The notes beneath the pieces were generated by a model, which was not told the DNA's origin, did no database searches, and was given only the letters and a program-made list of their open reading frames with translations. 32,000 bases of DNA from Synechocystis sp. PCC 6803 substr. PCC-P (lineage in GTDB: Bacteria > Cyanobacteriota > Cyanobacteriia > Cyanobacteriales > Microcystaceae), in contig NC_017039.1 in assembly GCF_000284455.1 (NCBI RefSeq), positions 2,520,001 through 2,552,000 of the forward strand, written 5' to 3'. This document shows, piece after piece, positions 2,373-31,615 of the stretch. Numbering within the stretch: position 1 is the first letter of the stretch; every line of letters starts with the position of its first letter. A program made the position numbers and the translations under genes.

Positions 2373-3318
2373 TAGTAGTTTCAAATAAAGCTGAGACGCT
2401 AAACGCCACAGTAAGAACGGATAATTTCATCAAGAGACGTGTCAATAGGAGCGTACATTCTAGCTCGTTTCAAGGCACTAAAGTCATGCTCAATATCATT
2501 TAAATCAGGAGAATATTTCGGCAAAAAAAGAACTTCATGACCTGCTTCTTTAGCCAATTCTTTAATGGCAGTTTTACGATGAATAGGAGCATTATCCATT
2601 ATTAATATTGATGGAATGTCGAGGGAGGGTAGCAAATATAATTTTAACCATCCTTCAAAGCCTTCTGCATTCAAACTCCCGGTAAAAACCATCGGCGCAA
2701 TCAAATCTTTTTTTCCTTTTCTTCTCCCTGCTACTAGATTTTCTCTGACTCCCCTTTTTCCTTGTCTATCTCCATAAACTTTTTTTCCTTTTTTTGACCA
2801 GGCATAAATACAAGCCTGGATTGCTTCGAATCCAGATTCATCTATGTAAACTATAGCTTGACTACCATAGAGCTTAATTAGTTCTCTTAACATTCTATAG
2901 TACTTAACTCGTTCCTCCCGGTTTCTTTCTCGATAACGTAGTTCTTTTTTTTTCTGTTTATTTTCATTTTCTTTAATGCGTAATATACGGCACTCGGCCT
3001 CACTCCAAATTTCTTGGCTCTGTCTATCAATCTTGCATCGGGATTTTCTTCTACGTCTTTTTTTAGAGCTTCCCAGTCTAATTTCCTATGGCGACGCTCT
3101 ACTTTTGTTGGGCTTAAATCTACTCTATTTAACCATCTGTATATCGAGGCTTTTCCTATTTTATATATCTTGGAAGCCTCAGTTATTTTTCCTCCAGCTT
3201 CTATATAAGCTACTACCCTTTGCCTTAAATCTAAACTGTAAGCCATTGTTTAAACCTGTTCATTTTGTACACTCCATAATTTTACATTAAATTCTCTCAT
3301 CGTTAATTGAAATGACTA
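2373..3318 (-). mobile_element. ISY100 (IS630/Tc1-mariner family) copy 1, 946 bp, flanked by a TA target duplication (2371-2372 and 3319-3320)
   Basis: Nearly identical to the 947-bp copy at 11860..12806 in reverse orientation. The imperfect 24-bp terminal inverted repeats are TAGTCATTTCAATTAACGATGAGA and TAGTAGTTTCAAATAAAGCTGAGA, with 19 of 24 positions matching by my alignment. It is one base shorter than copy 2. Confidence 0.93.
2399..3246 (-). pseudogene. ISY100 transposase split into two ORFs (2887..3246 and 2399..2893) by a 1-nt deletion in a homopolymer
   Basis: The T9 run at 2945-2953 (A9 on the coding strand) corresponds to A10 at 12225-12234 in the intact copy. Apart from one substitution (Thr here, Ile in copy 2, position 3107 vs 12071), the two ORFs reproduce the 282-aa protein. 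Confidence 0.9.
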
Positions 3319-3408
3319 TATTTCACTTTCTGGGATAAAATTTTGGGCACGGAAGATCCCACATACCAAGAAAAGCTTGGACGAAATCAAACAACAAAAG
3401 AGTATTAA
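3319..3408 (+). pseudogene. 3' remnant of the IS-disrupted fatty acid hydroxylase-like gene
   Basis: Joining 2372 to 3321 across the TA duplication gives ...NYGLYFTFWDKILGTEDPTYQEKLGRNQTTKEY, with stop TAA at 3406-3408. The F-x-x-W-D-x-(I/L)-x-G-T tail is typical of this family. Confidence 0.75.
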
Positions 3409-3425
3409 AATACAAACTAATGGAC

Positions 3426-3457
3426 AAAAAAATCGCATCTCGCTTAAAAGATGCGAT
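3426..3457 (-). terminator. Candidate intrinsic terminator downstream of petE
   Basis: 9-bp perfect stem ATCGCATCT (3432-3440) / AGATGCGAT (3449-3457) with an 8-nt loop. On the minus strand it is followed by a T-run (plus-strand A-run 3426-3431). It lies about 195 nt after the petE stop. Confidence 0.5.
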
Positions 3458-3460
3458 CGC
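3453..3460. repeat. HIP1 palindrome GCGATCGC; one example of many dispersed copies
   Basis: Other exact copies I located are at 4333-4340, 6118-6125, 6461-6468, 7504-7511, 10337-10344 and 31273-31280, with many more present. This density is a signature of Synechocystis-type cyanobacterial genomes. Confidence 0.9.
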
Positions 3461-3652
3461 CAAAACGCAGAAGTTTTTCTAAGTAGATGGCTTGGTCAAG
3501 AATCTGTTTTGTAGACTTTCGATCCGTCCTCCTGAACATCTACTCAGCAAGAGAAACATTATTTGCCTTGCCATTGCGAGAAGCTGAGGGAGTTGGAGAC
3601 AGACCCCGTAGCATTAAGCTTAAATCAACGACACACAGATTGAGCTGGCTGA

Positions 3653-4033
3653 TTACTCAACGACAACTTTGCCTACCATGCCAGCACCCCGGTGGGGTTC
3701 ACAGTAGTAGGTGTAGGTGCCGGGCTCAGTGAAGGTGGAGGTGAAGCTTTCACCAGCGGCAAAGGCCAAGCCTTTGTGGGAGAGCTTAGCAGCGGTGTCA
3801 GCATCCACACCATCGGCGGCAAACACAATGTTATGAGGGGAGAGTTTGTTGTTAACCCATTTGACTTCCTCTCCAGCTTTGATGGTGACGGTGCTGGGTT
3901 CAAAAACTAGGGCACCACTGTCAGAACCCATTTTCACTGTTGCATTGGCAGCGGCAGCGGGGCTCACGGATAAAAAGAAACTGGAGACCACCAGCAGAAG
4001 GCCAGCGAGGATTGTTAAAAACTTTTTAGACAT
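3653..4033 (-). CDS. petE: Plastocyanin precursor
   Basis: 126 aa with a signal peptide ending AAA/ANATV and type-1 copper ligand context: PHNIVF, then [17 protein letters not shown] (Cys-x2-His-x4-Met). Confidence 0.97.
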
Positions 4034-29473: not shown

Positions 29474-29508
29474 CTAAACGGGGCGTTAGAGGGCTATTGG
29501 AAGCCGGC

Positions 29509-29994
29509 TTAGGTATTTTGGGCATCAAGGAGATTTCCCTGAAGGGCTATGCTGGGCATTCTGCGGACCTCGATGATTTCCTTGCCCAACTTGTGTATGT
29601 CATCGTCTTCCGAGTAGATGCATGATGCTTTCTGGGCTAGGGCAACAGCTAAGACCATCATGTCAATTTTCATCTTTTCCCGCTGGATGCCTAATTCTTC
29701 CCTCAGCCCCCACTTATTGATATGGATTTTGCCGTATTCAATACTCGCTGGAACGTCAAATGGTACTATTTTGGTCCTTCGAGAAATCTCTTCCATGACT
29801 CTTGGGTTGTCTTGAGGATTGCATCCCATCAGTAACTCGGCAAAAACGGGAGCCGGTATAATGATATGGTTGCGGTTGGCTTCCAGCTGATTCATTAGAG
29901 CTTCTGCCTTTGGGATGTTTTCTTGACGGTCGGAGGATGATTGCCTTTGAATGCCCCACACGACAATATTTGTATCAAGACAAATAATACTCAT
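29509..29994 (-). CDS. PIN-domain ribonuclease (VapC-like)
   Basis: ICLDTNIVVW (Asp7), PVFAELL (Glu), KIDMMVLAVA (Asp) and YSEDDDI (acidic cluster) give the four-acidic-residue PIN layout. 161 aa. Confidence 0.85.
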   Translation of the reverse strand: MSIICLDTNIVVWGIQRQSSSDRQENIPKAEALMNQLEANRNHIIIPAPVFAELLMGCNPQDNPRVMEEISRRTKIVPFDVPASIEYGKIHINKWGLREELGIQREKMKIDMMVLAVALAQKASCIYSEDDDIHKLGKEIIEVRRMPSIALQGNLLDAQNT

Positions 29995-30003
29995 TTCAGT
30001 GCA

Positions 30004-30789
30004 TTAATCTCCATTTTGGCTTTCGGCAAAGTAGGAGACTGGGTCATCGATGTGGGAGAAAGCATCGCTGATACTCTGTTTAAGATGATTAAAGGTCTCT
30101 GTTATTGGGGAGTCTTGGTAGTCCGTGAACTCGATGATTTGAAAAGACTGGATTTCCATGTCATTCATTCTCCATTCGGCGTTCCCCCTGATGCCAACAA
30201 TCTCATACAATCTTTGCCCAGCTTGACGAACGATCGCCTTTTTAGCATCACAGTAGAGTATTTTACCGGACATCATTTTGATCGCAACTTTGGGTTCACT
30301 GCCGCCGACTCGAATGATTTCTCCGTAGAGTGTGGTTTCCCCTTGCATTGTAATAGATGCAGGAATTTCTAATGTTTGATTGATTGAGGTTAGATATTTA
30401 CGACTCCCATTGACGGCATAAAATTCCGTATTAAATCCTCCTTTCTTAGAGAGTTGACGAATCTTGGCAATGCTTTCAACGGTTTTTGAGGGAAGAATTT
30501 CGAGCTTGCGGGTCTCTATGCAATGGGAAACGGCTTCAAAGGCAGGAACCGTGATTTCGGGTAGACTAGGCTCATACTCCAGGATATAGCCATCACCTTT
30601 AACGTTTTTCAGACCGACTATGATGTCATTGGTACGGATCTCGGAATGCTTATCATGAACGTAAGTGCTGATTATTTCTTCTGTCGCTGCAATTAATTCG
30701 CCAATATCCTTCGACCTGACTTTGCCGGGGGATATCCCTGCTCCAGTCAAGCTTGTTTCAATCGTGGTATCTCCATAGCTTTGGGTCAT
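30004..30789 (-). CDS. Hypothetical protein, 261 aa, no family recognised; encoded 9 nt upstream of the PIN gene
   Basis: Clean ORF with an ATG start. GGAGA lies 14 nt before the PIN ATG, inside this gene's 3' end. I could identify no HTH, RHH or AbrB motif. Confidence 0.6.
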   Translation of the reverse strand: MTQSYGDTTIETSLTGAGISPGKVRSKDIGELIAATEEIISTYVHDKHSEIRTNDIIVGLKNVKGDGYILEYEPSLPEITVPAFEAVSHCIETRKLEILPSKTVESIAKIRQLSKKGGFNTEFYAVNGSRKYLTSINQTLEIPASITMQGETTLYGEIIRVGGSEPKVAIKMMSGKILYCDAKKAIVRQAGQRLYEIVGIRGNAEWRMNDMEIQSFQIIEFTDYQDSPITETFNHLKQSISDAFSHIDDPVSYFAESQNGD

Positions 30790-30901
30790 TGTAGGTTGGC
30801 ACGGAGTTGATTGCGTGGCCTCTACAGTGAGAATAACAAGTAATCGACTCTGTGGATAGATGGGAGAGGGTCAGCTTATTTGCTTTTTTTGACACTGCGC
30901 T

Positions 30902-31165
30902 ATGGGATCATTCTGTCTTCCCTTTCTTACTCCGGAGTTGACGGGGCTTTTTCTTGGTGGTAGTCGCCAGTGCTACCGATTAATTGCCGGTGTGATTGAG
31001 TTATGTCCAGAATTGGAATTAATATTAAAGGAAATGAGGCGCTTGGGATGGACTGAAGAACGGGGGAGAGGTTATTTGCAGGAAAATTTTCGCAAGCGTT
31101 CTAGATATGAGTTAACAATTGAGGAATGTCAACTGTTTTTATTTTACCCACAAAATTTGCTGTAA
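30902..31165 (+). CDS. Small hypothetical ORF (87 aa), divergent from the PIN cassette; coding status uncertain
   Basis: ATG start but no obvious RBS. The C-terminal half RLGWTEERGRGYLQENFRKRSRYELTIEECQLFL resembles a short motif I recall from cyanobacterial mobile-element or plasmid proteins (memory only). Confidence 0.3.
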   Translation: MGSFCLPFLTPELTGLFLGGSRQCYRLIAGVIELCPELELILKEMRRLGWTEERGRGYLQENFRKRSRYELTIEECQLFLFYPQNLL

Positions 31166-31321: not shown

Positions 31322-31615
31322 TTAAATAACAGGAAATACTTTGTAATAAATCATCACAAAAATAGTCAAGATATTAATGGCGTAGTTAAATAAAAGGGGC
31401 CACATATTAGCATCAGTTCTTGCCTGCTCATAAAGAACAAACACCAGCGTAAGGACTTCCCCGATAAACCACGATCCTAAAAACAAGGGAGACAAACCGT
31501 TAGCATTGCCATTCAGCCAACATTCGTAGGCCTGGGGGATGCCACAAACTGCCAACATGAAAGCGCCGATCCATCCTATGGCCCTGAGATTTTGATTTGC
31601 TGGTTCTTGTTGCAT
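31322..31615 (-). CDS. PQ-loop, three-TM small membrane protein (SemiSWEET-like)
   Basis: 97 aa with three hydrophobic helices. A PQ motif sits in the first helix (AVCGIPQAYECWLNGNANGLSPLFL), as in PQ-loop repeats. Confidence 0.55.
   Translation of the reverse strand: MQQEPANQNLRAIGWIGAFMLAVCGIPQAYECWLNGNANGLSPLFLGSWFIGEVLTLVFVLYEQARTDANMWPLLFNYAINILTIFVMIYYKVFPVI

Follow-up and report, generated by a model that had tools for sequence, protein, structure and literature searches.

VapBC modules form the most abundant class of toxin-antitoxin (TA) systems, with antitoxins that are regarded as small proteins binding to DNA. In the FitAB complex, Arg68 of FitA reaches the active site of the PIN protein, and VapB proteins possess similar C-termini. 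The present work deals with two adjacent genes, sll0405 and sll0406, located on a stretch of 32,000 nucleotides (nt) from Synechocystis sp. PCC 6803 substr. PCC-P (contig NC_017039.1, positions 2,520,001 to 2,552,000 of the forward strand); this whole stretch is denoted as the window. The locus is not new as a candidate TA system. A survey of chromosomal type II TA systems listed sll0406 (PIN) and sll0405 (a "hypothetical" antitoxin) with the gene order antitoxin-toxin, as a prediction only, and did not find the pair in the related strains examined (Kopfmann et al., 2016; Toxins 8:228; PMC4963859). Nothing was previously known about the partner, whose family, fold and linkage are the new aspects described here.

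Compared with the features that characterize VapBC systems, the locus encodes a PIN protein and, closely spaced upstream of it, a partner. Instead of a small DNA-binding antitoxin of about 70-100 amino acids (aa), this partner is a protein of about three times the length of VapB. The pair probably represents a VapC-type TA module with a non-canonical class of antitoxin.

Anatomy and predicted folds of the pair

Exact-sequence lookup identified the two open reading frames (ORFs) as sll0405 (BAA10255.1) and sll0406 (BAA10254.1) of Synechocystis sp. PCC 6803. Both are encoded on the minus strand. sll0405, the putative antitoxin or partner (261 aa), occupies positions 30004..30789 of the window (ATG at 30789-30787, TAA at 30006-30004), and sll0406, the putative toxin and VapC-like PIN nuclease (161 aa), positions 29509..29994 (ATG at 29994-29992). 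The intergenic spacer read from the sequence comprises 9 nt (29995..30003, minus strand). An initial annotation of the window had described two same-strand genes 9 nt apart, and its coordinates were confirmed by ORF calls and direct reading. A GGAG at 30012-30009 (minus strand), still within the 3' end of sll0405, may serve sll0406 as ribosome-binding site. The two genes share one reading frame, separated by TAA and three codons, and a single event of stop-codon read-through would fuse them; fused homologues of this type were absent among the top 150 family representatives.

The PIN assignment made in the initial annotation, with all acidic positions in place, proved correct: sll0406 matches the Pfam family PIN (PF01850) with E=4.9e-14 and its catalytic acids are intact. 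Among 25-29 members of its subfamily, no exchanges occur at D7, E53 and D80 and hardly any at D111 and D130, D80 being an extra invariant Asp beyond the four catalytic acids. The subfamily profile recognizes structures of VapC from Rickettsia (3zvk, 5.5e-6), of tRNA(fMet) endonucleases from Shigella and Salmonella (3tnd and 5ecd, 4.8e-5 to about 1e-4) and of FitB (2h1o, 0.02), while the NCBIfam VapC models respond weakly, with 25 bits against a cut-off of 140. The four conserved acids and the profile similarity are shared with VapBC and FitAB; the additional Asp80 and the separate subfamily are not. Judged by its sequence, sll0406 is a member of a distinct VapC-like clade with intact catalytic residues and a predicted ribonuclease.

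The partner is of a different kind. No significant match to sll0405 was obtained in Pfam, NCBIfam, PADLOC or the sequences of the PDB, and the sub-threshold matches in these collections (Gemin7, Lon_C, bL21, RuvA) were regarded as noise. Neither Pfam nor NCBIfam reported an RHH, AbrB, Phd or HTH domain, in agreement with the earlier view that this protein of 261 aa is not a canonical VapB and lacks a DNA-binding motif. Likewise, no consistent Pfam match was seen in 144 diverse family members, a search of PDB sequences with the family profile found nothing, and no housekeeping family emerged from the sequence and structure comparisons.

The family is large nonetheless. A hidden Markov model (HMM) built from the alignment of the first sll0405 relatives was run exhaustively against 1.84 billion cluster representatives. 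The number of 50%-identity clusters retrieved was at least 1347 at E<=1e-3, and still 881 at E<=1e-10 and 256 at E<=1e-30. With few exceptions the members measure 250-275 aa and match end to end, i.e. their length is constant. A word-indexed search had returned 4 partner and 7 PIN homologues and had suggested a tiny family, which the exhaustive profile search showed to be wrong; repeating the word-indexed search with a 144-sequence profile gained little. One 368-aa candidate with a partial AbiTii match (P0178) was not used, as it gives the impression of a truncated or chimeric metagenome call and is not followed by a clear PIN gene. A family of more than 1300 sequence clusters from many phyla is thus without a Pfam or NCBIfam model and is labelled hypothetical by annotation pipelines.

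Structure prediction with AlphaFold2 (AF2) yielded a full-length model of sll0405 with a predicted local distance difference test (pLDDT) score of 75, in which three parts can be distinguished. The first is an N-terminal alpha/beta domain (residues 1-136; 30382..30789, minus strand) with the order b-a-b-b-a-a-b-b. Residues 1-137 modelled separately from a 97-sequence alignment reached a pLDDT of 93.4 and a predicted TM-score (pTM) of 0.87. The best Foldseek match of this model in the PDB (E=3.4e-3, TM<=0.37) belongs to generic ferredoxin-like sandwiches, so that the modelled N-domain is without a convincing structural relative. Its conserved residues are G16, P21 and E37. Weak matches to viral DNA ligases had raised the idea of a ligase-like architecture of nucleotidyltransferase plus OB-fold, which was rejected since the confident N-domain model matches no nucleotidyltransferase.

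The second part, residues 147-222 (30124..30351, minus strand), is predicted as a five-strand barrel, in line with the earlier impression of a beta-rich C-terminal half. AF2 places strands at 147-162, 167-172 and 177-181, a helix at 184-193 and further strands at 197-207 and 213-222 (pLDDT about 79-88). With this model Foldseek returns only OB-folds from the PDB, namely IF1, eIF1A/aIF1A, RPA, ExoVII and proteasomal Rpt proteins (probability 0.99-1.0, target-normalised TM 0.4-0.55); viral SSBs are also among the Foldseek matches. Based on the predicted barrel geometry, with the helix between strands 3 and 4, this domain is an OB-fold of the IF1/S1-like type. It is the most conserved part of the family, with the motif G-E-T-T-x-Y-G-x-I-x-R-V-G-G-x-x-P and the further conserved residues L194, Y195, G202, W206 and F216. 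The aromatic and basic residues Y155, R160, Y195, W206 and F216 are suggestive of nucleic-acid binding. In the modelled barrel, its inserted helix and these residues, sll0405 resembles OB-fold proteins that bind single strands, from which it differs by the absence of any sequence-level relationship, by the extra N-domain and by being always encoded together with a PIN protein.

The third part is an acidic, amphipathic helical tail (residues 223-261; 30007..30123, minus strand) with helices at 229-258 and a pLDDT of about 52. An acidic tail behind an OB domain is also found in bacterial SSB and in T7 gp2.5, which is an architectural analogy. Residues 223-261 carry a net charge of -7 in sll0405, compared with a family median of -5, and the family consensus ends in ...D-V-x-x-[FY]-[IV]-x-x-[LI]-R-x-G. 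The Arg of this consensus is near-invariant (92% of 144 sequences; 51/59 in an independent sample), which makes the partner's C-terminus reminiscent of those of FitA and VapB. sll0405 itself deviates, with Gln258 in place of the family Arg and Gly67 where 94% of the members have Ser. The Synechocystis relatives closest to sll0405 also deviate at positions 67 and 258 (Thr at 258 in L037, the locus of another Synechocystis genome), and Limnothrix relatives keep the tail Arg. The exchanges Ser67->Gly and Arg258->Gln may reflect a lineage-specific rewiring of the contact between tail and PIN protein. The acidic tail noted in the initial annotation is therefore real and family-wide. As to the occlusion of the PIN active site proposed there, an acidic tail alone as the plug of the acidic catalytic pocket is not the best model, since the conserved feature is an acidic helix plus Arg (Gln in sll0405).

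Linkage, co-divergence and mobility

Seven PIN homologues were examined by contig, and 7/7 have a gene of 258-267 aa without Pfam match directly upstream that aligns with sll0405. Two scans enlarged this sample. The partner-anchored scan applied a degenerate DNA pattern to one genome per GTDB species (185,579 species representatives) and gave 31 loci, 29 of them true family members: 26 with a PIN gene, one cut by the contig end and two remnants without PIN. A PIN gene of the same subfamily hence follows immediately downstream on the same strand in 26/28 evaluable loci. An independent PIN-anchored scan of metagenome contigs, again with a degenerate pattern, gave 64 loci, and the partner lies directly upstream of the PIN gene in all of the evaluable ones (62/62). 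The TA-like two-gene architecture proposed in the initial annotation accordingly recurs in independently sampled loci and is not due to chance. According to the ORF calls, values of -4, -1 and 0 nt predominate for the spacing between both genes in relatives and point to translational coupling; antitoxin-first bicistronic operons with overlapping or abutting genes are likewise typical of VapBC and FitAB. Pairwise identities of partner and PIN proteins correlate over 59 complete pairs (Mantel r=0.89; 0/999 permutations reach this value). The pairing is essentially obligate, i.e. a dedicated PIN clade has as its sole partner a conserved protein of 260 aa, composed of an OB-fold and a fold-orphan domain.

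The exceptions are asymmetric: two loci are partner-only remnants, and PIN-only loci amount to 0/62. One remnant, from a Leptolyngbya metagenome-assembled genome (MAG), is a truncated 180-aa partner adjoining era without PIN downstream (L027, 6356-6898, plus strand). The other, from a Pseudomonadota MAG (L030, 1762-2334, minus strand), is a 190-aa stand-alone derivative that retains OB-fold and tail only, preceded by 45 unrelated aa at the N-terminus; it is flanked by lpxB and lpxA, and its surroundings contain no PIN gene.

Such tight linkage would also be expected if both proteins formed a two-subunit ribonuclease, in which the partner recruits RNA or confers specificity and the complex is the active enzyme for RNA processing or turnover. 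The KH protein Pno1 acting with the PIN nuclease Nob1, and the CSD and S1 domains combined with PIN in Dis3, are analogues of such an arrangement. The strict 1:1 linkage, the translational coupling, the co-divergence, the IF1/S1-type OB-fold, the strong conservation of a folded 260-aa protein and the lack of a DNA-binding antitoxin domain all agree with this explanation. It is nevertheless improbable, as the module is accessory, mobile and absent from most relatives, partner-only remnants exist while PIN-only loci do not, and the fitness data described below run opposite to its expectation.

The distribution of the cassette is wide and patchy. Hosts comprise Cyanobacteria, Chloroflexota, Planctomycetota, Bacteroidota, Verrucomicrobiota, Alpha-, Beta- and Gammaproteobacteria, Desulfovibrionaceae, Bacillota and Spirochaetota, i.e. 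at least nine bacterial phyla, in a pattern resembling horizontal gene transfer (HGT). Conservation of the pair in other genomes, raised in the initial annotation for cyanobacteria, thus extends far beyond this phylum. Mobility is also visible within the genus. In the window the cassette is flanked by ccmO, accB and efp on one side and by a PQ-loop gene and glcD on the other, whereas homology to the other Synechocystis genome (MAG locus L037) is confined to 29506-30968 and the flanks there are unrelated. The common block corresponds to the two genes and about 180 bp upstream, and its conservation in a different context indicates that the cassette is mobile with its own promoter included. Mobility and patchy distribution are shared with VapBC and FitAB. 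The GC content of the cassette (44.3%, compared with 48.4 +/- 5.7% for other ORFs) is no outlier.

When 144 neighbouring ORFs from 33 loci were compared all against all, no recurrent third gene emerged. In one lineage, a gene of 175 aa with a MICAH domain (PF27546) lies about 24 nt downstream of the PIN gene on the same strand (L004 6495-7022, L005 2087-2614 and L006 1923-2450, from GCA_036681025.1 and two Logan contigs); its product may be a lineage-specific third component. In general, the cassette is probably a horizontally mobile and self-contained two-gene module of the TA type.

The same distribution is compatible with a role in defence or abortive infection, in which OB-fold and N-domain would act as sensors of a protein or nucleic acid originating from a phage, and the PIN nuclease would be set free to stop the infection. 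This explanation overlaps with the TA reading and differs from it in the biological role only. Several observations point in this direction: the conserved Y155, R160, Y195, W206 and F216 of the OB-fold are typical of single-strand nucleic-acid binders, the HGT-like pattern extends over at least nine phyla, and each protein has a match among the PHROGs, sll0405 to phrog_19868 (E=1.6e-10) and sll0406 to phrog_21691 (E=5e-17), both being families of unknown function. A comparison of the full-length sll0405 model with viral predicted structures (BFVD) moreover retrieved three uncharacterised phage proteins (A0A8S5QA00, A0A8S5T657 and Q6NE06 of Leptospira phage LE1) with E=5.9e-11 to 2.7e-7 over 255-303 columns at a TM of about 0.4. 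A0A8S5QA00 contains DUF6575, which has been reported as part of an anti-phage system of E. coli (Vassallo et al., 2022; PMC9519451). By sequence, Pfam DUF6575 is absent in sll0405 and in 144 family members (E<=0.1), and the link is structural. The phage proteins thus resemble the pair in sequence match and full-length fold, with the low TM and the missing GenBank phage match described below on the other side.

The genomic surroundings speak for this role to a small extent. Type I restriction-modification (RM) systems adjoin the cassette at 2 loci and Uma2 nucleases at 2, and the pair occurs on one contig of a viral collection, IMG/VR UViG_3300013103_001596 (2623-3938; loci L039 and L051 are the same contig), where the genes overlap by 4 nt and are accompanied by small HTH-like genes and a 922-aa protein. 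This is the only viral-collection contig with the cassette, which accordingly seems to be carried by phages or other mobile elements from time to time. Against this stands that the neighbours at the 33 loci are mostly housekeeping genes, without enrichment or preference for defence islands. The defence-island location envisaged in the initial annotation hence did not materialize, with about 2/33 loci near type I RM systems and no convincing match to a known defence system: in PADLOC-DB v2, sll0405 has 0 matches and sll0406 matches only PDC-M11A marginally (E=0.0026, 14.5 bits). Furthermore, tblastn with three family members gave no match in 50,697 GenBank phage or 72,556 PLSDB plasmid records. 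A role of the cassette in defence or abortive infection is considered rather unlikely.

Fitness data and a proposed model of antitoxin action

A CRISPR interference (CRISPRi) screen of Synechocystis contains information on both genes (Miao et al., 2023; PMC10615215). Repression of sll0405 resulted in fitness values of -2.08 to -3.50 in 11/11 conditions, comparable to accB in the same table, with adjusted p values of 0.0095-0.097 (Supplemental Data Set 2, sheet "All significant genes", sorted by locus). In this locus-sorted table the row after sll0405 is sll0412, which means that sll0406 was not significant in any condition. The same asymmetry is found for ssl1004, a Phd-type antitoxin with significant negative values, and its PIN toxin sll0525, which is absent from the table; of two other PIN pairs neither gene is included. 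Toxins and antitoxins are not discussed by the authors of that study.

A deleterious effect of sll0405 repression next to a neutral sll0406 matches what would be anticipated if the two were antitoxin and toxin, and deleterious antitoxin depletion is a further property in common with VapBC and FitAB. The initial annotation had considered an oversized antitoxin with a sensor domain; the oversized-antitoxin part of this suggestion gains support from the CRISPRi asymmetry, and the sensor part is taken up below. For the two-subunit ribonuclease, harm from depletion of the partner and neutrality of nuclease depletion are the reverse of what would be anticipated.

In all 11 conditions, the fitness values of sll0405 reach the low level of essential genes. 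They could alternatively signify that sll0405 has an essential housekeeping function of its own and that the adjacent PIN gene is incidental to the defect, and the well-folded, conserved protein would fit this explanation. Yet the family occurs in very few genomes (29 true pattern matches in 185,579 species representatives), is missing from the other related strains examined by Kopfmann et al. (PMC4963859), always travels with PIN and occupies a different context in the congeneric strain, which renders such a housekeeping role highly improbable. An essential-like gene that is absent from most relatives and stands beside a dispensable nuclease corresponds to the conditional essentiality of an antitoxin. 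The antitoxin reading thereby explains a puzzling "essential-like" hypothetical gene in Synechocystis fitness screens.

Under the favoured TA reading, sll0406 would be a catalytically competent VapC-like PIN ribonuclease, presumably toxic through cleavage of an RNA target, and sll0405 its obligate, co-translated partner that keeps it harmless by direct binding. The acidic tail of the partner may sit in the RNA-binding groove of the PIN domain as a substrate mimic, and the tail Arg present in most members could reach the acidic catalytic pocket by analogy to FitA Arg68 in FitAB. OB-fold and N-domain might provide an extra binding surface or might bind nucleic acid (an operator, an RNA or a trigger) and thus set the release of the PIN protein.

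Several points weigh against this model. The tail-Arg mechanism cannot apply literally to sll0405, which has Gln258 and also deviates by Gly67 for Ser67, and confidence in the structural model is lowest for the tail (pLDDT about 52). A well-folded, conserved two-domain protein of 260 aa exceeds the needs of an inhibitor, which suggests an additional function; the model thus leaves unexplained both the conserved 220-aa two-domain body and how sll0405 works without the Arg. Classical autoregulation is unsupported, since neither a DNA-binding domain nor an operator-like inverted repeat was found. As to the CRISPRi data, the adjusted p of sll0405 falls below 0.01 in only one condition (PMC10615215). 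Moreover, dCas9 positioned on sll0405 is polar on sll0406, so that the defect requires sll0405 to be more labile than sll0406.

A more far-reaching version of the TA reading, which we hold to be tentative and not very likely, sees the partner family as a new class of sensor antitoxin. OB-fold and N-domain would bind a specific single-stranded nucleic acid, and this ligand (e.g. an intermediate of phage replication, or RNA that is damaged or uncharged) would displace the acidic tail from the PIN groove and release the ribonuclease. If true, the sensor antitoxin would amount to a trigger-sensing module of immunity or stress response, widespread over at least nine phyla and overlooked so far, and the significance of the family would rise substantially with an OB-fold that acts as a ligand sensor gating the toxin. 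The use of a nucleic-acid-binding fold for the control of a PIN toxin is directly testable in Synechocystis 6803, where sll0405 and sll0406 offer an entry point in a model organism with existing data on CRISPRi, transcription start sites (TSSs) and antisense RNAs.

Promoter region, antisense RNAs and neighbouring genes

Positions 30790..30968 (minus strand) move together with the cassette as its leader and promoter region, the homology to L037 ending at 30968. A single TSS for the pair was mapped 34 nt upstream of the sll0405 ATG, at about 30823 of the window (Kopfmann et al., 2016; PMC4963859). A -10-like TATTCT was read from the sequence at 30835-30830 (minus strand); a consensus promoter scan did not pick up the promoter of the published TSS. 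Operator-like inverted repeats of 7 nt or more are absent from 30760-30960, a further difference from VapBC and FitAB, besides the missing AbrB, RHH, Phd or HTH domain and the novel combination of alpha/beta domain and OB-fold in the partner.

Inside each of the two genes an antisense RNA is annotated on the plus strand (PMC7125299 supplement). For sll0406-as (29844..29947), the first 32 nt map exactly to 29844-29875, and for sll0405-as (30549..30701) to 30549-30580; the ends are extrapolated from the listed lengths of about 104 and about 153 nt, respectively. "Potential asRNA regulation" had been flagged for the pair (Kopfmann et al., 2016; PMC4963859). Antisense control above a protein antitoxin would be unusual. 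A peak of NtcA in chromatin immunoprecipitation sequencing under nitrogen starvation lies inside sll0405 (genome positions 2552752-2552901, log2 change 1.1; PMC5714215). By coordinate conversion the peak falls at about 30579-30728 of the window and overlaps the sll0405-as region, and it hints at a nitrogen-dependent control of the cassette.

Upstream of the cassette, an ORF of 87 aa without Pfam match runs divergently (30902-31165, plus strand). Its first approximately 67 nt belong to the block conserved in L037. The ORF is possibly not genuine; alternatively, the cassette may carry the 5' end of the ORF along. The adjacent PQ-loop gene (31322-31615, minus strand), adjoining the 3' end of glcD, encodes a membrane protein of 97 aa with a single PQ-loop repeat (PF04193, E=9.6e-12).

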